A stretch of 64,000 bases of DNA from an uncultured Mycoplasmatota bacterium (GTDB taxonomy: Bacteria; Bacillota_I; Bacilli_A; RF39; UBA660), in contig URHW01000003.1 in assembly GCA_900547775.1 (NCBI GenBank), positions 3,874-67,873 on the forward strand, given 5' to 3'. Below the pieces are notes generated by a model. The model was not told the DNA's origin. It ran no database searches and saw only the letters and a list, made by a program, of their open reading frames with translations. The position numbers were made by a program, and so were the translations under genes. Shown in pieces: positions 1,654 through 62,229 of this stretch. Position 1 is the stretch's first letter. Every line of letters begins with the position of its first letter.

Positions 1654-4004
<2,351 letters not shown>

Positions 4005-4008
4005 GTCC

Positions 4009-4998
4009 TCACCTTTCTATGTAGTTCTTTAAATAATTTAAAAGTGTTACAACTTTATCATATTCCATACGCTTAGGTCCTATTATAGCAATAGTTCCTT
4101 CTTCGCCATCAATGTTATAACTAGTTCTAATAACCGTTACATTTGGGTCAAACTTATTTTCTTCACCAATGAAGATATTAACATCTTTATCATCTGTTTC
4201 AATCTTCTTAATAAGATCCATATTCTCAAGTTTACCAATCATATTTTTAATCTTTTCTGGACTATCATACTCTGGTTGCTTTAAAATATTTGTCTTACCT
4301 TGGAAGAAAATATCACTATTTTTAACATTGAAATCGTTAAATGCATCGTAAAAGAAATCCATGACTCTTTCGTAGGCTTTAATTTGACTAGCAATAATTG
4401 GTTTAATTTCATATTCAAGTTTACTATTAATATCACTAAGTTTAGTTCCTACTAGTTTTCTATTAATAAGTTCACAAGCTTTAATCATTTCATCCATACT
4501 AATTGTTTCTGGTATATTACTTTGTTTATTTTCAACATGTCCCGTATTAGTAACTACTACTGCTACTATTTTCTTATCATCTATTGGGACGATACTAACT
4601 TGTTTTAAAGTATTATTATCACTATCTTTACCTAAGACAATACTTGTATAATTTGTGATGTCACTTATTATTTCCATACATTTTACTATTGCATCACTTA
4701 TAACTAAATCTTTATTATTAAGAATTGTCTGTAACTTTAAAACTTCATCACCAGTAAGTTCTTTAGGTTTCATTAAATTATCTACATAATATTTATAACC
4801 TGCTTCACTAGGAACTCTACCACTTGAGATATGAGTCTTTTCTAAATAACCTAAACTTTCTAGGTAAGCCATATCATTACGAATTGTTGCACTAGAGCAT
4901 TTTAACTTCTTAACTAAACTCTTAGACCCAACAGGCTTAACCGTCTTAATGTAAGTTTCTACAATAAGTCTTAATAGTTCATTTTGTCTATTATTCAA
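4009..4998 (-). CDS. hrcA: Heat-inducible transcription repressor HrcA
   Basis: HrcA-like sequence, first gene of hrcA-grpE-dnaK, CIRCE operators upstream; likely TTG start at complement 4996-4998 seven nt after AAAGGAGG (track ORF extends to GTG at 5019 which would overlap the RBS). Confidence 0.85.
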   Translation of the reverse strand: MNNRQNELLRLIVETYIKTVKPVGSKSLVKKLKCSSATIRNDMAYLESLGYLEKTHISSGRVPSEAGYKYYVDNLMKPKELTGDEVLKLQTILNNKDLVISDAIVKCMEIISDITNYTSIVLGKDSDNNTLKQVSIVPIDDKKIVAVVVTNTGHVENKQSNIPETISMDEMIKACELINRKLVGTKLSDINSKLEYEIKPIIASQIKAYERVMDFFYDAFNDFNVKNSDIFFQGKTNILKQPEYDSPEKIKNMIGKLENMDLIKKIETDDKDVNIFIGEENKFDPNVTVIRTSYNIDGEEGTIAIIGPKRMEYDKVVTLLNYLKNYIER

Positions 4999-5012
4999 AT
5001 TATAGCCTCCTT

Positions 5013-5039
5013 TTAGCACTCTTTTCTTTCAAATGCTAA
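5013..5039 (-). promoter_or_regulatory. CIRCE operator 1 (HrcA binding site)
   Basis: Minus-strand reading TTAGCATTT-N9-GAGTGCTAA versus consensus TTAGCACTC-N9-GAGTGCTAA (right half perfect). Confidence 0.8.
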
Positions 5040-5059
5040 TACTATTATAATATTATGCG

Positions 5060-5086
5060 TAGCACTTGTCAATATATGAGTGCTAA
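5060..5086 (-). promoter_or_regulatory. CIRCE operator 2 (HrcA binding site)
   Basis: Minus-strand reading TTAGCACTC-ATATATTGA-CAAGTGCTA; left half perfect, 9-nt spacer; TATAAT-like -10 lies between the two CIRCE copies. Confidence 0.75.
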
Positions 5087-5134
5087 TTTTTAAAAGTTTT
5101 TGTCAAAAGAAAATAAGACCTATAAAAGATCTTA

Positions 5135-6760
5135 TTAATTTACTATGTATGGGTCTTCTGATGTTCCTGTGCCACCTGAAATTGTGGCAGATGAAACGAT
5201 AGAAATTGAAGGACGGACCCCACTAGAGTCGTCCACGCTGTAGTTGACGAAGCTGCCATCGCTGCCGTCAACGCCCCAAACGACAGCCTTGCTGCCATCG
5301 AAGGAGCTAGGAGCCAAAGACCACCAATAAGTATCTGTAGCATTTTCTTGTAAATATGTTGTAGTATTTTCTAACATATAAGCATATCCTGCTAATGCTA
5401 ATTCATCTGCTGTTATTAAGCCTACTTTTGAATTTATTTTATTTAATTCTCCATTGCATTTTAAACTAGGACCAGTGCCTCCAGCACTATTATTTTTATT
5501 TACTAATCTTTGCGTAGCACCATAATATGTTATATTTGTACCATATCCTAAACCATTTGGATTCCAGCCATATGGATCATATGTTGTATCTGTTACATTT
5601 GTTTTATCATTGCACCATACAGTATCAGCTATTACTTTTTCATAATCTTTAAGATTATTCTTATCATACCAAGCCTCTAAATTAGTTAATATTGTACTTT
5701 TATTTGTATTTGCATGTGCGCTTGCATAATCACTTGTACCAACAGTACCATACTTAAATCCTACATAAGCATTATCATTATAGTTTGTATTAAATGCACT
5801 TTTATATGTTTCACCAGAATATCTTGCAAATGCTGCACTAGCACTATTATTTGCAGCATCACAAGGATTAGCTGCTCCAGTTGGATTATCATTATGTAAG
5901 ATAAGTTTTACTGAACCATCTCCTCCAACTCTTACTATTCTCCAGCACTTATTAGCAAATTCTACATAGTTGTTTTTTACAGCTCCTCTGAAATAATAGC
6001 TTGTTCCATAATCATCTACTGCAGATGCAAGTAATGCGTCATCAGCAGTAGATATAGCAGTTCCTGGTATGGTTATAGGTTCAGAGATTTCTATGCTATT
6101 TCTTAATGATGCAAGTAGAGTACCATTTCCAACCTCATACCATCCATTAGGTGCTGGCGCTGGTTCTTCTGCTGCATTACTTACTACTACTATTTTACCA
6201 GACCAGTTTTTGTTTAGGCCTTGTTCTGTTGTTACTGCACTATCCATCCAAATTCTTAGATCATAACTTTTTTCTTCGTTAGCTTTAAGTCCGGTATTAA
6301 TAATAATATAACCTTTTTTGTTGTTTTCTAAGTCTGTTAATGTTTGACTTCCTAATATAACGGATTTACTAGTGGTTGTACCTTTAGGTGATATATTTAC
6401 TTTCATATAGTTATCTTTTAAGTAAGATGTATTAGTACTTTCTCTATAAGTACTATCTATTGTAATATATACTTTATCATAACTATTACAGTTGTTTTTT
6501 ATTGTAAAAGTAAATGGGGGTTGTTTAAGACCATCTTCATCAGTTATTGGAAAAGCATCTGTTAAAGATATTTTAGATGTGTCTTCAGTAAGAGTTGTAT
6601 TAAAGCATGTTCTTGATGCTATAGTGTTATTTTCAGTTTGACTTAAGTAAAGTCTAAACCAAGCAAAAGAGACTCCAATTATGCACAGGACTGTTATTAA
6701 TAGTCCATAATATAATTTAAGTCTCTTCTTTTTATTATCTATATTTAATTCATGGTTCAT
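5135..6760 (-). CDS. Family A surface/secreted protein A1: TasA/camelysin-like N-terminus with SipW-type signal peptide, plus conserved Cys-containing C-terminal domain with hypervariable block
   Basis: N-terminal TM followed by SFAWF (A/Y-F-x-T/S-like SipW-cognate signal class); FTFTIKNNCNSY resembles TasA/CalY core; C-terminal ~300 aa about 90% nucleotide identical to 13366-15243 and 60421-62229; 4 conserved Cys. Confidence 0.7.
   Translation of the reverse strand: MNHELNIDNKKKRLKLYYGLLITVLCIIGVSFAWFRLYLSQTENNTIASRTCFNTTLTEDTSKISLTDAFPITDEDGLKQPPFTFTIKNNCNSYDKVYITIDSTYRESTNTSYLKDNYMKVNISPKGTTTSKSVILGSQTLTDLENNKKGYIIINTGLKANEEKSYDLRIWMDSAVTTEQGLNKNWSGKIVVVSNAAEEPAPAPNGWYEVGNGTLLASLRNSIEISEPITIPGTAISTADDALLASAVDDYGTSYYFRGAVKNNYVEFANKCWRIVRVGGDGSVKLILHNDNPTGAANPCDAANNSASAAFARYSGETYKSAFNTNYNDNAYVGFKYGTVGTSDYASAHANTNKSTILTNLEAWYDKNNLKDYEKVIADTVWCNDKTNVTDTTYDPYGWNPNGLGYGTNITYYGATQRLVNKNNSAGGTGPSLKCNGELNKINSKVGLITADELALAGYAYMLENTTTYLQENATDTYWWSLAPSSFDGSKAVVWGVDGSDGSFVNYSVDDSSGVRPSISIVSSATISGGTGTSEDPYIVN
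5219..5308 (-). other. Putative DGR variable region (VR) of A1
   Basis: 30-codon block aligning gaplessly with the equivalent blocks of A2 and A3; differences confined to codon positions 1-2 with position 3 fixed (C/T); GC3-rich codons atypical for this genome; conserved 3' flank GTCCGTCCTTCAATTTCT. Confidence 0.6.
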
Positions 6761-6785
6761 ATATACTCACTATCTTTCTATAGAA

Positions 6786-6813
6786 AGTATATAACAACCC
6801 CCCCCCGTGTCAA
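6786..6813 (-). promoter_or_regulatory. Promoter of A1: TTGACA -35, 16-nt spacer containing G9 tract, TATACT -10
   Basis: Minus-strand reading TTGACA-CGGGGGGGGGTTGTTA-TATACT about 20 nt upstream of the ATG; homologous A3 promoter is TGGACA-17-TATAAT. Confidence 0.65.
6798..6806 (-). repeat. Homopolymeric G9 (C9 on plus strand) tract in promoter spacer, candidate slipped-strand phase-variation switch
   Basis: Nine consecutive C on plus strand; the only long G/C homopolymer noticed in an AT-rich window; placed between -35 and -10. Confidence 0.8.
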
Positions 6814-6842
6814 GTTAATTTTTCACTAAAAATATTCTATAT

Positions 6843-7187
6843 TTAATTTTTCATGAACAAGATAGTAATTGCAAGACCTACTCCTGCAATTATAACTGCA
6901 CTTATTATGGTGATTACTTTGACATATCCATTTGGGTTATTTAATTTTAAAACACGTACTTCGCCATTTTCTTTCATTTCAGCTTCTTTAGTAAGTGTTT
7001 CTTCTCTTGTTTTATTTACTTTGCCTTGATATGTACTTACAAAAGCAATATCTTCTGGATTAGTACTATTTTTAATTTCTTCTACGTATGCATCTAAAAC
7101 ATCTTGTTCTTCTCTTATAATTGTTCCATTAAGATATAATTCTAAGTAATGTTTCATTATTTGCTTAGTTTCTTCACTAAAGCTCAT
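6843..7187 (-). CDS. Hypothetical tail-anchored membrane protein (C-terminal TM helix)
   Basis: 114-aa ORF; acidic N-terminal domain and single C-terminal hydrophobic helix. Confidence 0.4.
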   Translation of the reverse strand: MSFSEETKQIMKHYLELYLNGTIIREEQDVLDAYVEEIKNSTNPEDIAFVSTYQGKVNKTREETLTKEAEMKENGEVRVLKLNNPNGYVKVITIISAVIIAGVGLAITILFMKN

Positions 7188-8374: not shown

Positions 8375-8650
8375 AGGTACCTCCTTTATTATCTTAATTA
8401 TAAACTATTTTTCTAAAATTTAAAAGAAAAAACGGTGTTTTACCGCTCATTCACATGTAATTTGATCTTTCATAAAATATATTAGGTGATGCGTATGTGT
8501 CCAAACAATAATGGTTTTAATAATTTTTTTAAGGGTTTTTGGTCTTTTATTTGGTTTTTAATTTTATGTACATTAATTTTTTATCAGTTAATTATTACTT
8601 TTTTCTTTCCATTAAGATGGAATATTTGCATTTTGTTAATTGAGATCTTT

Positions 8651-9523
8651 TTACTCTTCTTTGTTCTCTACCGAATAATATGGCCTTATTAGTTTTTCAG
8701 TTTCGTTTATATAGTCAAATACTTTACTAGCATTTATTGTGTTTTCCATTTCATTTTTACCAAGTTTAAGTTCTAATGGGAAGGATAACATTAAAAATAG
8801 TAAGTGTTTTTCTTCTTCAAGTAAGTCAAATGATTTTAAGTATTTACTTAGAAAGTTGCTATAGTTATATTTGCCAAAGTCATTGTGATAGAGATTTATT
8901 AAATCAAGTATGGGTGTATCAACCGTGTAATGGTCCCAACTTATAAATTTGTTATCAATGAAGTGGTCTATGCTTAAATTGTTATGACAATAAACCACTC
9001 TTTCTTTTGTTTTTGTTGATGCTAAGTTATACCAATTTTCTGCTTCGTTTGTTAGAAACTCAGTTAATGATTTTATTTTACTCCGGCCTTCTAGAATAAC
9101 TTGCTCAGATGGAAGTAGAACTTCTTTAATTTCTAAATTATTAAATAATGTTTCATAATATCCTTCTAAGTAGGTTATGTTACTTACGATGTTTTCATAT
9201 ATTTCTTTTATTTTATCAGCACTAATGTCTTTAAAATAGACAGTTTTTGTGTGGAGACTAGAAAGAACTTTAGCCATATCTAATGATTTTTGTTCGATGG
9301 GAATTTCTGGTTCACTTACGACTTTATAAACGTATTCGTCATCAAGTTCATCTACTAGTTCTGGGTAGGATGTAAACGATCTGGAATTTAGATAATCATA
9401 TAGGGATTTAATATCCTTGCTTTTTTTCTTGATAACAAATCTGCCTTCGTCAGTATCTACTATTTTGCTTTTACCACTTATAGTGATTTTTTTAGGATTA
9501 AAGACCTCACTAATTTTCTTCAT
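8651..9523 (-). CDS. CotS/aminoglycoside-phosphotransferase-fold kinase-like protein
   Basis: HNNLSIDHF (Brenner-like HxDxxxxN) and DxD-like motif region; 290 aa. Confidence 0.45.
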   Translation of the reverse strand: MKKISEVFNPKKITISGKSKIVDTDEGRFVIKKKSKDIKSLYDYLNSRSFTSYPELVDELDDEYVYKVVSEPEIPIEQKSLDMAKVLSSLHTKTVYFKDISADKIKEIYENIVSNITYLEGYYETLFNNLEIKEVLLPSEQVILEGRSKIKSLTEFLTNEAENWYNLASTKTKERVVYCHNNLSIDHFIDNKFISWDHYTVDTPILDLINLYHNDFGKYNYSNFLSKYLKSFDLLEEEKHLLFLMLSFPLELKLGKNEMENTINASKVFDYINETEKLIRPYYSVENKEE

Positions 9524-13365: not shown

Positions 13366-15243
13366 TTATTTTACGATGTATGGATTTTCACTGGTACCAT
13401 TTCCGGTTACGTTGGTAGAGGGCTTAAGAGAAATTGAAGGACGAACTGCGCAAATGTTGTTCACGCTGTTGTTGAAGATGCTGCTAATGCCGCCGGAAAC
13501 GAACCAAGCGATAGCGAAGTCACCATTGAAGCCGATAGGAGACAAGGACCACCAATTATCACCAGTAGCATTTTCTTGTAAATATGTAGTTGTATTTTGT
13601 AATCCCAATGCATATCCTGCATATGCTAGTTCATCTGCTGTTATTAAGCCTACTTTTGAATTTATTTTATTTAGTTCTCCATTACATTTTAAACTAGGGC
13701 CCGTGCCACCAGCACCACCACTTGTACTTATTAATCTTTGTGTAGCACCATAATATGTTATATTTTTTGCATATCCTGAACCAGTAACATTCCTCCAACC
13801 CAAAGGATTATAAGTTTTATCTGTTACATTTGTTTTATCATTACACCATATTGTATCAGCTATTTTATCAGCATAATCTTTTAAATTATTTGTATACCAA
13901 GTTTCTAAATTAGTTAGTATTGTACTATTATTTGTATTTGCATGTGCACTTGGATATTCACTAGCACCAGCAGTACCATACTTAAATCCTACATATGCAT
14001 TATCATTATAGTTTGCATTAAATACACTTTTGTATGTTGTACCAGAGTATCTTGCAAATGCTGCACTAGCACTATTATTTGCAGAATCACAAGGATTAGC
14101 AACTCCTGCTGCATTATCATTATGTAAGATAAGTTTTATTGAACCATCTTCACTAATTCTTACTATTCTCCAGCATTTATTAGCAAATTGTACGTAATTA
14201 TTTTTTACTGCTCCTCTAAAATAATAACTTGTTCCATAATCATCTTCTGTACTCGCTAATAAGGCTTCGGTTTTATTTTTATTGGTACATAAGGGTTTAT
14301 ATGTGAAACTACTTGATGTAGCGCTTACTACATAATATACGCAATTTAAATTAGTTGTAGTCATCATTGTTCCAGCAGTACTTGAACCAAAACTGTATTG
14401 TTCTCCATGAGTTAAATATTTACCTACTAAGTCAGAATATGAATTAGCATATGTATCACTTGTTACTGCTATTCCTGTTAAATTAAATTTTGTACCATTT
14501 GCTTCCCAGCCTGTTCCATAGGTTATATAATATGCTTGATATTTTGATGATACACTTGTAGTTCGACTTTCGGCATCATCTAAAGTATGTGCACTCACTT
14601 CCTTTCCAGGTGTAGTTATTGGTGCATTTACTTCATTTTTTGCTAGTATAGTTTCTGAAAAAGTAGATGTAGTAGGTGCTTTATCACTTGTTATCTCTAC
14701 ATGAGCACTAAATGCTGCTCCTTGATTTGCGTTTTGGCTAGTTGCTTTCTTAGGATAATATATCTTTAATAGATATGTATGTTTTGCATTATTTGCTTTT
14801 ACAAAGTGTCCCTTACCTAATTCAATAGATGTACCCGTAATATCAGTTTTTGATATTGTTGGTATAACTTCTCCATTTGTACTTGTATTAGTACTTACTA
14901 GTTCATATTGTAATGGATCATCTGTTTTAAATGTGTTTGAGTCTACTACTAAAGTTAACTTATAGTACATTTCAGCATCTGTTGTATTATTACCAGTTAC
15001 TGTTATAGTTTTTGTAGCCCATACATCATCTTTAGGATATATTCCAGCTAGATCAATATTTGCTCCTCCATCATAAGTTATTTTCATTGTTCCGGCATCA
15101 GCTCTTACTGTAGTACTATTTTCAGAACTCATTCCAGCAGTAAAGAATGCATATGTTGCTCCAATAAAGATTATTGCAACAAGGATTCCAATATATAAAT
15201 ATATTTTTTTAAATTGTTTATCCATTTTACTATCTCCTATCAT
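13366..15243 (-). CDS. Family A protein A2: camelysin/TasA-like N-module (type II) plus conserved C-terminal domain with hypervariable block
   Basis: N-terminus YAFFTAGMSS…AGTMKITY resembles SipW-cognate signal and TasA/CalY start; first 185 aa homologous to ORF 46350-46907; C-terminal 300 aa paralogous to A1/A3. Confidence 0.7.
   Translation of the reverse strand: MIGDSKMDKQFKKIYLYIGILVAIIFIGATYAFFTAGMSSENSTTVRADAGTMKITYDGGANIDLAGIYPKDDVWATKTITVTGNNTTDAEMYYKLTLVVDSNTFKTDDPLQYELVSTNTSTNGEVIPTISKTDITGTSIELGKGHFVKANNAKHTYLLKIYYPKKATSQNANQGAAFSAHVEITSDKAPTTSTFSETILAKNEVNAPITTPGKEVSAHTLDDAESRTTSVSSKYQAYYITYGTGWEANGTKFNLTGIAVTSDTYANSYSDLVGKYLTHGEQYSFGSSTAGTMMTTTNLNCVYYVVSATSSSFTYKPLCTNKNKTEALLASTEDDYGTSYYFRGAVKNNYVQFANKCWRIVRISEDGSIKLILHNDNAAGVANPCDSANNSASAAFARYSGTTYKSVFNANYNDNAYVGFKYGTAGASEYPSAHANTNNSTILTNLETWYTNNLKDYADKIADTIWCNDKTNVTDKTYNPLGWRNVTGSGYAKNITYYGATQRLISTSGGAGGTGPSLKCNGELNKINSKVGLITADELAYAGYALGLQNTTTYLQENATGDNWWSLSPIGFNGDFAIAWFVSGGISSIFNNSVNNICAVRPSISLKPSTNVTGNGTSENPYIVK
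13447..13536 (-). other. Putative DGR variable region (VR) of A2
   Basis: Same 30-codon block as in A1/A3; contains AAC AAC AGC GTG AAC AAC; variation versus paralogs at codon positions 1-2 only. Confidence 0.6.
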
Positions 15244-52549: not shown

Positions 52550-53233
52550 TTAGTTTAAATGTTTTTCTAAGGCTACGTACTTATTCATTTTACTTCTTTT
52601 TAGTTCGACTAGTTCTTCAATACTTGCATTAGGATAGTTTTCATCTTTTAAAAGCTCCTTAACAATACTTTTTACTAGGGTATTCTCAATATTAATACTG
52701 CTGCCATCAAGTAAAAGTCTAACACATTCTAATGCTTTTTCGTAAGCATCATTAAAATTTATTCCAAATACTTCACTGTCATCAATTTCTTTGCTTCTCA
52801 TTTTCATTCTATTTGAAGCATTTTTTTGGTATCTATGGATGCGATAGTTTTGAAGTCCAGTACTATCCTTGATTGCTTCTAAATCAGTTATGGTTGTGTT
52901 TCCTATGCTTTTTATTATTATACCAAGTTCAGCGGATAATAATATAATTGCTAAGCCAAAATTTATAAAACTACTACCTAACACTAATAAGGTAAGTACT
53001 GCGTATGCAAGGTATGATTTATGAGATTGTTTTATGGTCTTAGTTATATCATTGTTAAGGTTTTCTTTTAAGTGTTCATTTTCTCTAAGAAGTTCATTTA
53101 GATTATTACTTATACTAGTAAGTTCACTATTTTGTACATCTAAACTATATAATTTTTTATAAATCTCTTCTAAGTTTGAATCGATTTTCTTAAGTTTTTT
53201 TTCATGTGTCTTTGCAATATTTTCCTTCTTCAT
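52550..53233 (-). CDS. Family B paralog B2
   Basis: Coiled-coil plus 2 TM plus C-terminal motif ELLKDENYPNASIEELVEL. Confidence 0.5.
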   Translation of the reverse strand: MKKENIAKTHEKKLKKIDSNLEEIYKKLYSLDVQNSELTSISNNLNELLRENEHLKENLNNDITKTIKQSHKSYLAYAVLTLLVLGSSFINFGLAIILLSAELGIIIKSIGNTTITDLEAIKDSTGLQNYRIHRYQKNASNRMKMRSKEIDDSEVFGINFNDAYEKALECVRLLLDGSSINIENTLVKSIVKELLKDENYPNASIEELVELKRSKMNKYVALEKHLN

Positions 53234-53253
53234 AATTCATCTCCTTTTGTTTA

Positions 53254-53934
53254 TTATTCTGTAAATGCCTTTTTAAGTACCATTTCTTTGCTTCGTTTTT
53301 CTTTTGCCAGTTCTAATAGTTCGGTAATACTTGCGTTTGGATGGTCTTCATCTTTTAAAAGTTCTTTTACAATCATTTCAATATATGGCGATTCAAGATC
53401 TGGTTCAGCACCTTCAAGTAACATTTCAACATATCTAACTGATAAGTCAAAAAGCATTTCAAGTTCTTCGCCCACCCACACATCATTATTTATATTTTTA
53501 CTGGTACTTTTTACTTTTTCAATGATTCCATTTTTGTAACTAGTTATTCTGCTTTTCTGTCCATAAAGTTCTAAAAGTAGTTCATTAAGTTCTTCTACTT
53601 CGGTGCATCCTTTATATTTATATACAGAGACAACACTTAATGCAGTAAGTACTAGTCCAATTGGCAAATTGATAAAACATATTCCAATACTTATTAATGA
53701 TAGTATTGTACGGATTAAAATATTTCGTGATGCTCCTTTATTATAACTTTCAATCATGTTTATAACTTCATATAATAAGTTTTCGTTATCTTTCATCTTT
53801 TCATTTAAAGATAGGCTTAACTTTCCAAGTTCCTTTAAAGATAGGTTCTTACCATATAGTTCATAACTTATATCATTTAATTTTCTTTCACTTTCTTCAT
53901 AACTCTTTGTTAGTGACTTATATTCTTTTTTCAT
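53254..53934 (-). CDS. Family B paralog B3
   Basis: C-terminal motif ELLKDEDHPNASITELLEL; same architecture. Confidence 0.5.
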   Translation of the reverse strand: MKKEYKSLTKSYEESERKLNDISYELYGKNLSLKELGKLSLSLNEKMKDNENLLYEVINMIESYNKGASRNILIRTILSLISIGICFINLPIGLVLTALSVVSVYKYKGCTEVEELNELLLELYGQKSRITSYKNGIIEKVKSTSKNINNDVWVGEELEMLFDLSVRYVEMLLEGAEPDLESPYIEMIVKELLKDEDHPNASITELLELAKEKRSKEMVLKKAFTE

Positions 53935-53947
53935 AATTTTCTTCCTT

Positions 53948-54628
53948 TTAATTAGTTTTAAATTTTTTTAGTAATGGTGGGGTGTCTAATTGTTGGCGTC
54001 TAATATTAACCAGCTCTGGGATGGTCGCATTTGGGTAATTATCATCTTTAAGTAGTTCTAAGACTACCGCTTTTAATAGAGGAGACTCAATCTTAATATC
54101 TTTGCCACTTAGAAGCCCTTCAACACAGTTTACTGCATTATCAAAAATAGCTTCTAGTTCTCTACCAGACCATTCTTTTTCGTCTATTACTTTTTTGCTA
54201 TGAAAAGTTTTTGTTTCAATTTCTTTTTTTAATCTAGTAATTTTTATCTTTTGTTCATATTCTTGCGTTTTCATCTTTTGCAAACTCTTATAATCTACGT
54301 CAAATAAATTCTTGCCTAATATTCCTGCATTAATTAGTAAAAATAATACTGCTAGTGGCCTATTTATAAGACACATTATAAAGATTATGAGTCCAATAAT
54401 ATTTCCAGCAATAAATCTTTTAACAGTTTCTTTTTCATTTTTATCTAGTTCTTCATCAATTTTGTCATTAATTCTTTGATTTTCACTAATAGCTTTGTTT
54501 AATTCCATTTTTAAACTTCCAAGTTCATTTAGAGGAATATTATTTTCGGAAAGTTTTAAGCCAACATTATTTACTAATTTTTTATTATCGTCTAGTTCTG
54601 CACTTAATTTTTTTATAGTTTTTTTCAT
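53948..54628 (-). CDS. Family B paralog B4
   Basis: C-terminal motif ELLKDDNYPNATIPELVNI; start placed at MKKTIKK to match paralogs. Confidence 0.5.
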   Translation of the reverse strand: MKKTIKKLSAELDDNKKLVNNVGLKLSENNIPLNELGSLKMELNKAISENQRINDKIDEELDKNEKETVKRFIAGNIIGLIIFIMCLINRPLAVLFLLINAGILGKNLFDVDYKSLQKMKTQEYEQKIKITRLKKEIETKTFHSKKVIDEKEWSGRELEAIFDNAVNCVEGLLSGKDIKIESPLLKAVVLELLKDDNYPNATIPELVNIRRQQLDTPPLLKKFKTN

Positions 54629-54754
54629 TATAAACCTCCCTTTTTTACCAAGCAAAAATTATTCTAACACACGCCTTTTTTTCAGTCAAACGAATGAATG
54701 GTAATGAACTTAAAATGTGTCAAATAAGTATCAAAAAAAGGACTAATTTGTCCT

Positions 54755-60420: not shown

Positions 60421-62229
60421 TTAAGTACTTATTATGAATGGGCTATCACTGGTACCATTTCCGGTTACGTTGGTCGTCGACTTAAGAGAAATTGAAGGAC
60501 GGACGCCGTAAGTGAGGAACACGTAGTTGCCGCCGAAGTAGCCATTGCTGCCGATAACGTACCAAACGCTAGCGCCGGCACCATAGAAGAAGTAAGGAGA
60601 CAAGGACCACCAATAAGTATCCGTAGCATTTTCTTGTAAATATGTTGTAGAATTTTGTAATCCATAAGCATATCCTGCTAATGCTAACTCATCTGCTGTT
60701 ATTAAGCCTACTTTTGAATTTATTTTACTTAATTCACCATTACATTTTAAACTTGGACCCGTACCACCAGCACTACCACTAGTACCTACTAATCTCTGTG
60801 TAGCACCATAATATGTTACATTTTTAGCATATCCTAAACCATTTACGTTACTGTAATTATAAGGGTTAAATGTTGTATCTGTTACATTTGTTTTATCATT
60901 ACACCATACAGTATCAGCTATTACTTTTTCATAATTTTTAAGATTATTCTTTTCATACCAAGCCTCTAAATTAGTTAGTATTGTACTTTTATTTGTATTT
61001 GCATGAGTAAGAGCATAGTCACCAGCACCAACAGTTCCATACTTAAATCCTACATATGCATTATCATTATAGTTTGTATTAAATGCACTTTTATATGTTT
61101 CACCAGAATATCTTGCAAATGCTGCAGTAGTACTATTATTTGCAGAATTACATGGATTAGCTGCTTTTGCAGTATTATCATTATGTAAGATAAGTTTAAC
61201 TGAACCATCTCCACCAACTCTTACTATTCTCCAGCACTTATTAGCAAATTCTACATAGTTATTTTTAACTGCTCCTCTAAAGTAGTATGATGTACCATAA
61301 TCATCAGGAGTACTTGCTAAAAGTGCTTCACTTGCAGTAGATACTTCTTTTCCTGGTGCAGTTATTGGAGTCTTTACTTCATTATTTGCTAGAATTGCTT
61401 CTGCTAAAGTTGGCTTTTTTGTTTCAAATGTAGCATTACACCTTACATTACCATCACTAATTGCAGTTGTAAGAATCCATTTTGTTCCATTCCAAGTTAT
61501 ACTTTCGTTAGCATCTATCTTTTTACCATTTCTAGTACACTCTACAGATGCTGTATATTTATCTGTTGTTGGAAATGTACTACTTTCAACTCCATCTATT
61601 AGAGCTGCAACATATAAATCATCTTTTGGTCTTGTCTTAACAGTTCCTACTACTGATATTTTTACTTGATAGTTTTTACCTTCAATATCTTCTTTAGTCC
61701 AGATATCTTTATTATTACTATCAAGCCACATTCTAAAGTTAAATGTTCTACTTTCATCTTTAGATATGCCATCTCCTCTTTTTAGGATATAGTTTTCAGT
61801 TATATTGTATTTAGATAGACTTTGCGGAGTAGATATAGATTCTAGAGTATTAATTACTGTACCATTTAAGTCATTGTCTCCTAGTAAAGATACTTTTACA
61901 TATTTAGAGTCTATTTTGTTAGTTGTACTAATTACGGATGCGATAACATAATACTCAATGTAGTTATCACATTTATTTTTTATAGTAAATGTGTATGGTG
62001 TTTGTTCTAAGGCTTCGCCTTCAGATATTGGGTAAGTATTAAGTAAATTAATTTCATTTTGTCCATTGAATTCTAAATCCATACATGATGCTGCTAGAGT
62101 GTTTGTATCAGTTTGACTTGAATAATTAGTAAATACCGCATAACTTACTCCAGTTATCATAAGTACTACTGCTAGCATTATACATAAAATTAACATTCTT
62201 TTTTTATATCTATAGAGACTATGGTTCAT
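60421..62229 (-). CDS. Family A protein A3: TasA/camelysin-like N-module (type I, as A1) plus conserved C-terminal domain with hypervariable block
   Basis: VSYAVFTNYSS signal class; YTFTIKNKCDNY; C-terminal 300 aa paralogous to A1/A2. Confidence 0.7.
   Translation of the reverse strand: MNHSLYRYKKRMLILCIMLAVVLMITGVSYAVFTNYSSQTDTNTLAASCMDLEFNGQNEINLLNTYPISEGEALEQTPYTFTIKNKCDNYIEYYVIASVISTTNKIDSKYVKVSLLGDNDLNGTVINTLESISTPQSLSKYNITENYILKRGDGISKDESRTFNFRMWLDSNNKDIWTKEDIEGKNYQVKISVVGTVKTRPKDDLYVAALIDGVESSTFPTTDKYTASVECTRNGKKIDANESITWNGTKWILTTAISDGNVRCNATFETKKPTLAEAILANNEVKTPITAPGKEVSTASEALLASTPDDYGTSYYFRGAVKNNYVEFANKCWRIVRVGGDGSVKLILHNDNTAKAANPCNSANNSTTAAFARYSGETYKSAFNTNYNDNAYVGFKYGTVGAGDYALTHANTNKSTILTNLEAWYEKNNLKNYEKVIADTVWCNDKTNVTDTTFNPYNYSNVNGLGYAKNVTYYGATQRLVGTSGSAGGTGPSLKCNGELSKINSKVGLITADELALAGYAYGLQNSTTYLQENATDTYWWSLSPYFFYGAGASVWYVIGSNGYFGGNYVFLTYGVRPSISLKSTTNVTGNGTSDSPFIIST
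60505..60594 (-). other. Putative DGR variable region (VR) of A3
   Basis: Same 30-codon block; NNC-type variation relative to A1/A2; conserved 3' flank GTCCGTCCTTCAATTTCT. Confidence 0.6.

Follow-up and report, generated by a model that had tools for sequence, protein, structure and literature searches.

Three paralogous genes of an uncultured gut Mycoplasmatota bacterium carry probable variable regions of a chromosomal diversity-generating retroelement

The window analysed in this work, a stretch of 64,000 nucleotides from an uncultured Mycoplasmatota bacterium, contains three paralogous genes that we call A1, A2 and A3 (Table 1), and the C-terminal blocks that they encode are very probably variable regions (VRs) written by a diversity-generating retroelement (DGR). 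The element would be a chromosomal, multi-target DGR of the type that carries a small MutS-like (MSL) gene, with DUF6273 proteins as its targets; A3 would be one of its remote targets, and A1 and A2 would be frozen or relic VRs. We infer retro-homing itself, and a current activity of the element, from the observations given below. A sequence-only reading of the window had proposed a DGR footprint at these blocks, made up of a template rich in AAC and AAT codons, an adenine-free scaffold, a 3' flank resembling an initiation of mutagenic homing (IMH) sequence, and a reverse transcriptase (RT) and template repeat (TR) lying outside the window, and this proposal was borne out when TR and RT were recovered in conspecific contigs.

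Adenine-specific footprint in the C-terminal blocks

Once reverse-complemented, the C-terminal blocks of A1, A2 and A3 align over 42 codons (126 nt), from TGG TGG to ATT TCT; the alignment is gapless, as the sequence-only reading had claimed, and longer than the 38 codons that it had given. The intervals 5219-5308, 13447-13536 and 60505-60594 correspond to codons 7-36 of this alignment. Across codons 7-37 the variable sites among the three genes number 21, 18 and 5 at codon positions 1, 2 and 3, respectively, against 14, 15 and 22 in the 240 nt directly upstream that served as control (Fisher p = 6e-4). Twenty-five codons in this stretch vary, 20 of them at positions 1 and 2 only and five (codons 11, 13, 35, 36 and 37) also at position 3. 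The 20 codons of the former kind had been counted correctly beforehand, out of a total set too low at 21 because the position-3 exceptions were undercounted. The six invariant codons without adenine (TTC, GCT, TGG, GTT, GGC and GTG) and the string AAC AAC AGC GTG AAC AAC in A2 were found as described, and so was the island of about 50% GC, the VRs having 50-56% GC and the remainder of each gene 31%. Furthermore, GC at third codon positions (GC3) is 62-67% in the block and 10-13% upstream in each gene.

All three genes keep their scaffold codons, and the IMH-like flank, GT(C/T)CGTCCTTCAATTTCT, is largely kept as well. The A1 flank diverges after ATTTCT from A2, A3 and the cis target of the cassette described below, and its CTTAAG part is missing. 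No conserved hairpin was found 3' of the VRs (folding z-scores from -1.8 to +1.5). In agreement with the earlier claim that neither TR nor RT lies in the window, pattern comparison revealed no fourth copy or TR there, the top non-self match reaching 38 of 80 invariant positions, and tblastn revealed no homologues of RT, Avd or MSL.

Recovery of the template repeat and its cassette

A first scan, whose pattern was made up of the positions at which the three VRs agree, was run against one genome per species and led to two contigs of metagenome-assembled genomes from the Hadza gut. One of them (L001) carries another VR-bearing paralog; the other (L002, 6 kb) carries a complete cassette, with the 3' end of a target gene including its VR, an AAC-rich non-coding repeat, a 120-aa open reading frame (ORF) similar to MutS_I, a 117-aa Avd-like ORF and a 328-aa RT. 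When the VR of this cassette was compared with its own TR, 16 of 16 mismatches were at adenines. A second scan against metagenome contigs used the TR pattern, with AAY required at three hypervariable codons, and retrieved 11 loci. Seven of these carry the variant that we call TR-B, six of them in identical form and the seventh with one base changed. TR-B was identical in more than 10 gut-metagenome contigs, in each case 5' of MSL, the Avd-like gene and RT, and reads TGG TGG TCC TTG TCT CCT AAC AAC TTC AAT GGT GAC AAC GCT AAC GTT TGG AAC GTT AAC GGC AGC AAT GGC AAC TTC GAC AAC AAC AAC GTG AAC AAC ACT AAC GGC GTC CGT CCT. The search for a DGR-type RT adjoining a TR, which had been proposed as a check on the complete genome or metagenome bin, was made here in public genomes and metagenomes and yielded conspecific contigs in which AAC or AAT stands at the variable codons and the scaffold bases are those of the VRs. 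Scans of viral contigs with the VR pattern and with the TR pattern retrieved nothing, which indicates that the element is chromosomal and does not belong to a catalogued phage.

The TR is about 135 nt long and lies within a non-coding region of about 700 nt. The surroundings of the TR (L031 ~8490-9190; also L002, L010, L014 and L056) are strongly conserved over about 330 nt on the 5' side and about 238 nt on the 3' side, even across two DGR lineages. The conservation across lineages would be that of a structured RNA of the DGR; in Rfam, the non-coding sequence around the TR matched no family.

The gene order of the cassette is serS, cis target, TR, MutS-like gene, Avd-like gene, RT, Mbeg1-like gene and polC. 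In the contigs that encode the common RT variant, from which the context was read, the arrangement is fixed throughout: recA, a dockerin protein, a cadherin-like protein, ffh, a small ORF, serS, the cis target (471-520 aa) and TR-B are followed by MSL (120 aa), the Avd-like gene (117 aa), RT (324/356 aa), the Mbeg1-like gene, polC, rluD, an HTH protein, a ZIP transporter and RNase J. The RT belongs to a cluster of 613 member sequences. It matches RVT_1 (Pfam), has IGNMTSQ and YMDD, in keeping with the (I/L/V)GxxxSQ and YxDD motifs of DGR-clade RTs, and is encoded about 1.1 kb 3' of the TR. The 120-aa protein qualifies as MSL (MutS_I, E = 1e-6; 29.3 bits, cutoff 20.6), and the 117-aa Avd-like protein matched bAvd with E = 0.005 (17.7 bits, cutoff 40) and NF033474 with 6e-6 (26.5 bits, cutoff 80). 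The size and position of the two genes are consistent with architecture D, the MSL-avd-RT arrangement of Wu et al. 2018, who also document non-adjacent and remote targets of DGRs (PMC5758913). Several of the contigs start or stop exactly at the VR or TR. Assemblies typically break at hypervariable repeats, and such breaks explain why linkage to the cassette is missing.

A3 is a clean variable region of TR-B

The comparison of A3 with TR-B covers 117 nt, with 34 TR adenines and 83 non-adenine positions. Against TR-B, taken from the conspecific contigs, A3 has 20 mismatches and all 20 are at TR adenines, with identity at 83 of the 83 other positions (hypergeometric p = 8e-14). The IMH-like 3' end of the A3 VR is TCAATTTCTCTTAAG (60481-60495), and that of the TR is TATTTTCTCTTAAA. 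In the alignment the VR ends in ...GTCCGTCCTTCAATTTCTCTTAAG and the TR in ...GTCCGTCCTTATTTTCTCTTAAAT, with the homology ending there, as expected of a putative IMH and its TR counterpart IMH*. The homology starts at TGGTGG, and the ends, CCTTCAATTTCTCTTAAG in the VR and CCTTATTTTCTCTTAAAT in the TR, correspond to the usual IMH/IMH* arrangement.

To follow the variation of this VR across strains, as had also been proposed, the A3 locus was compared in 11 gut strains including that of the window, the flanks in the other samples being 0-1.6% different from the window; those of scaffold_1 of BAEC15-1_SAMEA2579954 are identical to it. Four VR alleles were present, and the fifth state was a different paralog (L024). 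The adenine/non-adenine mismatches to TR-B were 20/0 in allele 1 (window, L022 and L028), 20/0 in allele 2 (five samples), 12/4 in allele 3 (L027) and 23/0 in allele 4 (L029), that is, three of the four alleles differ from TR-B at TR adenines only. Over seven clean VRs, the bases at the TR-adenine sites were A 98, G 84, T 41 and C 15. Additionally, L022 matched the window without mismatch across some 7.5 kb made up of the flanks and the N-domain of A3, yet about 59 nucleotide differences clustered in a tract of about 300 nt just 5' of the VR (window ~60730-61030). Such a tract resembles the product of gene conversion with another paralog as donor, or of a chimeric assembly.

Link between the cassette and the species of the window

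The cassette was connected to the species of the window through two long contigs. The first of them, contig_13135 (ERZ28759208, 1.145 Mb), has the cassette at 32-53 kb (L031) and a thiI/paralog/sigma-70/ackA locus at 3-21 kb (L055), and this thiI locus is 99.41% identical over 13,575 nt, without gaps, to that of contig_7040 (726 kb, L052). The latter contig also has the A3 locus in the gene order of the window (L028), with flanks 98.6% identical and a VR identical at 135 of 135 nt. Because a contig with the cassette and a contig with the window-syntenic A3 are thus related at 99.41%, the TR-B DGR belongs to the species of the window, and the cognate element predicted to lie elsewhere is located, at the level of the species, on the chromosome. 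By synteny, A3 and the cassette would be roughly 0.2-0.3 Mb apart. A protein of contig_7040 (P0216) that was considered as the cis target turned out to belong to another paralog locus, that of thiI, yet it supplied this species link. The samples with an RT variant from the Joint Genome Institute (JGI) collection (P0131) differ from the sample of the window-type JGI contig.

The cis target, other paralogs and a second DGR

The VR next to the TR is far more variable than its surroundings: six out of six sampled cis-target VRs were distinct, five of them differing at 17-24 of 117 sites, while the adjacent 2.9 kb were only 0.24-1.4% different between samples. In the sixth (L036), which lacks a codon, the comparison was out of register. 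The adenine/non-adenine mismatches of the five in-register cis VRs to the TR were 18/0, 22/0 (own TR), 22/0, 18/1 and 19/0. Two more remote paralogs on contig_13135 gave 19/0 and 18/1 against TR-B.

At least four more paralog loci lie outside the window (L003-L007 ~19.6-21.5 kb; L052/L054/L055; L053). The gene downstream of holA (611 aa) has a VR that is decayed in most strains and very different in L007; the one at thiI/sigma-70 (524 aa) has a VR with an extra codon, identical in three strains; and those upstream of spoIVA (521 aa) and after rpsT (517 aa) have VRs with 19/0 and 18/1 mismatches to TR-B, respectively. A search with the A3 C-domain gave 3166 matches, nearly all of them singleton clusters at 90% identity, with up to six paralogs per 1.2-Mb contig; such a list rich in singletons is what a hypervariable multigene family leaves in a database. 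The genome may be small, as several contigs have lengths of 1.0-1.2 Mb.

A second DGR was observed upstream of spoIVA in a 1.2-Mb scaffold (L056; ERZ28637579 VERV19-1 scaffold_1, 2773-7098). It consists of a 627-aa target, a TR that we call TR-E, MSL, an Avd-like gene and an RT that shares 58% identity with that of the first DGR; a RhuM-like gene comes next. The same spoIVA-side position in contig_13135 holds a paralog only, with no cassette. TR-E was considered as the cognate of A1 and A2 and rejected, being three codons shorter and having a different scaffold.

A1 and A2 carry the footprint and fit none of the recovered templates cleanly

The adenine/non-adenine mismatches of the A1 VR were 19/7 against TR-B, 19/6 against a GGG variant of TR-B and 18/7 against TR-C, and those of the A2 VR were 17/8 against TR-B, so that the best of five TR variants leaves differences outside the TR adenines in both genes. 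The enrichment at adenine sites relative to TR-B is still significant (A1, p = 1e-7; A2, p = 5e-6). The A1 scaffold is a mix of features like those of TR-C (GGC AGC) and of TR-B (ACT, GGG GTC). No variation of either VR was seen among the related strains that carry them. An unchanged A1 protein is encoded on at least 10 contigs that come from different gut samples, some of these from strains with 1% divergence in the flanks, and four related strains have the A2 VR with the same nucleotide sequence throughout. According to this, both VRs are probably relics, or else the product of an unsampled TR variant. The earlier proposal that a single DGR serves at least three targets is therefore borne out for A3 and for the paralogs outside the window, and not for A1 and A2 with their seven and eight non-adenine mismatches and their invariance among strains.

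The chromosomal positions of A1 and A2 are occupied in other strains by other paralog types of 441-674 aa (L042-L051, L003/L004), and some of the VRs at these positions have only 2 non-adenine mismatches against the TR-C lineage. One strain has no gene at the A2 position, and in L008 an A2-type gene follows trmD-rplS rather than efp. As far as the compared sequences go, these differences in position point to paralog-mediated swapping or rearrangement.

Weighing of the alternative explanations

Several observations weigh against the assignment of the three blocks to a multi-target chromosomal DGR. The matches of the Avd-like protein are below the curated cutoffs, and the C-type-lectin fold of the target domain is left unconfirmed by the AlphaFold2 model of the A3 C-domain, which was built from a 44-sequence alignment and was unusable at a pLDDT of 33. 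A1 and A2 have at least 6-8 non-adenine mismatches to every TR recovered. The evidence for VR variation is at the level of contigs from different samples. The same A3 allele occurs in strains with flanks about 1% or more apart, which implies that A3 has been rewritten repeatedly but rarely. Lastly, among the contigs and samples compared, none held both the cassette and a window-type strain. This last point would be accounted for if the strain of the window had no DGR or a dead one, with all its three VRs frozen, that of A3 among them, a situation that we consider unlikely although it deserves some weight, since the A3 allele of the window is unchanged in a strain with flanks 1.4% diverged and the common 324-aa RT variant (P0121) is present in 120 collection blocks against 1171 for a marker protein of the window, these counts not being strictly comparable. 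However, the A3 VR shows zero non-adenine divergence from TR-B, the cassette sits in the core-gene context serS-polC in every conspecific contig that spans it, and the many assemblies that break at the VR/TR repeat account for the absent linkage, so we infer that the cassette is present in the window's own strain as well.

An explanation with no retroelement at all would invoke diversifying selection on a loop rich in Gly, Ser, Asn and Tyr, together with codon bias or gene conversion among paralogs, and gene conversion and mosaicism among paralogs do occur in the C-domain beside the VR. This explanation has a minimal probability in our view: it meets third positions fixed as C or T in a genome with GC3 of about 12%, an AAC-rich non-coding repeat with the predicted scaffold that adjoins a DGR RT in the same species, and the restriction of the A3 differences to 34 adenines among 117 positions. 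Recovery of TR and RT, the variation of the cis VRs and the adenine-only mismatches of A3 effectively refute this explanation.

At the opposite extreme, A1, A2 and A3 could all be current targets of one DGR that is diversifying them now, as the scaffold and flank kept in the three genes and the dominance of adenine-site mismatches in all of them would suggest. Nevertheless, homing replaces the whole VR with TR-derived cDNA, so that non-adenine differences should vanish, and in A1 and A2 they are spread along the VR; both VRs are also identical across the strains compared, whereas every sampled cis VR is distinct, and A1 lacks part of the flank. We therefore hold this to be improbable. A somewhat better case, still on the unlikely side, can be made for a second, unsampled TR or DGR of the same genome serving A1 and A2. 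Related lineages do have several TR variants (TR-A, TR-C and TR-D) and the second DGR, A1 combines TR-C and TR-B features as an unsampled variant would, and VRs at the A1 position in other strains come within 2 non-adenine mismatches of TR-C. On the other hand, TR-E fits neither gene, no recovered TR has fewer than 6 non-adenine mismatches to A1 or A2, and the two VRs do not vary among the strains that carry them. The assignment to a multi-target MSL-type DGR with A3 as remote target is thus the one that we retain; of the genes of the window, only A3 is demonstrably a clean TR-B target, and A1 and A2 look frozen or orphaned.

An extension of this assignment, which we put forward tentatively and would not expect to hold in full, is a two-tier variation of the surface in which seven or more dispersed DUF6273 paralogs are rewritten by one or two chromosomal MSL-type DGRs, at rates that differ widely (cis target hypervariable, A3-like targets rarely rewritten, others frozen), and gene conversion and whole-gene swapping reshuffle N- and C-domains. 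If this were true, frozen VRs such as those of A1 and A2 could archive past specificities for redeployment by recombination.

Proposed mechanism and comparison with known systems

In the mechanism that we propose, the TR would be transcribed and copied by the RT into cDNA, with misincorporation opposite the 34 adenines of the template, and this cDNA would replace a homologous VR, the direction being set by the IMH-like 3' end. As the TR adenines occupy positions 1 and 2 of AAC and AAT codons, amino acids change, the C or T at third positions is kept and stop codons never arise, and a template made of such codons also explains the GC-rich island in an AT-rich genome. A3 would be a remote target rewritten several times in the diversification of the species, and A1 and A2 may have been written likewise by an older or foreign TR variant, with no rewriting from TR-B since. 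The function is likely to be variation of a ligand-binding surface.

This is a system of a known kind, a described DGR architecture on a described target domain, in a new host, an uncultured member of the gut Bacilli. Current understanding is unchanged by our finding, given that the mechanism of DGRs is firmly known and that the gut is very rich in such elements. According to published work, DGRs target the DUF6273 domain, whose fold is described as C-lectin-like and which has the VR at its C-terminus (PMC10743442, PMC11792537). A close parallel in organisation is the DGR of Treponema denticola (TvpA and remote targets), which is also chromosomal and not phage-borne, uses one TR for a cis target and scattered paralogs, and has its VR at the C-terminus of the lectin-like domain of surface proteins (PMC5758913). 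Its cassette has an HRDC accessory gene (architecture C), whereas here MSL and an Avd-like gene (architecture D) are found, with DUF6273 targets and a low-GC host of the gut Bacilli. Legionella pneumophila and other architecture D DGRs share the small MutS-domain-I-like gene adjoining avd and RT (PMC5758913); they differ in host phylum and target proteins, and here the TR lies upstream of MSL-avd-RT in a long conserved non-coding region. The many dispersed targets seen here are unconfirmed as a feature of those elements. With the prototype of Bordetella phage BPP-1 (Mtd/Avd/TR/bRT), the present element has in common adenine-specific mutagenesis, an invariant TR, AAC codons, a C-terminal VR and a difference between IMH and IMH*, but the BPP-1 element is phage-borne, has a single target and the order mtd-avd-TR-brt, and possesses a targeting hairpin 3' of the IMH, no notable equivalent of which was found here. 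Lastly, the DUF6273-type targets of gut Firmicutes phages (Faecalibacterium prophages; tentaclins) are of the Pfam family seen here, with a VR mapped to the C-terminal end of the domain and a fold reported to be C-type-lectin-like (PMC11792537, PMC10743442). They serve the phages in receptor binding or decoration and are encoded in prophage DGR cassettes, whereas the present targets belong to the cell itself, their genes lying among housekeeping genes (hrcA/dnaK, lon/efp, proS).

These data show that a DGR target can be recognised from the sequence of the target alone and then traced to its template in public data. They also add a prevalent, uncultured member of the human-gut Bacilli to the small set of bacteria in which one chromosomal DGR serves many dispersed cellular targets, and the apparent gradient from hypervariable to frozen VRs within one family could offer a handle on homing competence (IMH sequence, distance from the cassette, transcription).

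The three paralogous genes and other features of the window

Table 1. Coordinates of the three paralogous genes and their variable regions in the window
Feature	Position	Strand	Description
A1	5135..6760	-	541-aa paralog; ORF
A2	13366..15243	-	625-aa ORF (619 aa as called in public assemblies); paralog of A3
A3	60421..62229	-	602-aa secreted or surface protein paralog; ORF and translation
A1 variable region	5201..5326	-	DGR footprint; mosaic relative to known TR variants; IMH-like flank shortened
A2 variable region	13423..13554	-	DGR footprint with non-adenine differences from all TRs found
A3 variable region	60481..60612	-	117-nt TR-homologous core 60496-60612 and IMH-like 3' end

A1, A2 and A3 share a layout in which a hydrophobic segment at the N-terminus precedes an N-domain that diverges between copies, followed by about 300 C-terminal aa with 74-78% identity among them. 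We regard them as members of a dispersed family of at least seven secreted-protein genes in which the VR is formed by the last ~45 codons of the DUF6273 (reportedly C-type-lectin-like) domain, and the targets are probably secreted or surface proteins. A3 starts with a hydrophobic anchor or signal and is DUF6273-like at its end; it is the only one of the three to reach the Pfam cutoff for DUF6273 (24.2 bits, cutoff 23.5), a domain that Pfam matched in 21 of 44 family members. The N-domain of A2 is of the same type as that of the cassette cis target; with the cis target in L013, the 5' region of A2 shares 90.6% identity. NCBIfam matched nothing in A1-A3, and a SipW-type signal peptide, considered on account of an N-terminal '...GVSYAxFT' motif, gave no match to its NCBIfam model. 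An exact look-up returned no record for the 602-aa A3 protein, and a sequence search of the PDB returned no meaningful relative.

At 52550-54655 of the window, three paralogous ORFs stand in tandem, each about 230 aa long and none of them matched by Pfam; a repeat family is present at 52602/53309. Rfam gave no family at gathering score in the whole 64 kb, in which no tRNA genes were found. Aminoacyl-tRNA synthetase genes, several of which are present in the window, often have T-box leaders in Firmicutes. The window has 29.5% GC and is coding almost wholly on the minus strand, and its gene content is that of an ordinary Firmicute chromosome, with dnaK, grpE, hrcA, frr (ribosome recycling factor), lon and efp, in addition to two penicillin-binding proteins, gyrA, a VWA/MucBP protein, ABC transporters and proS.

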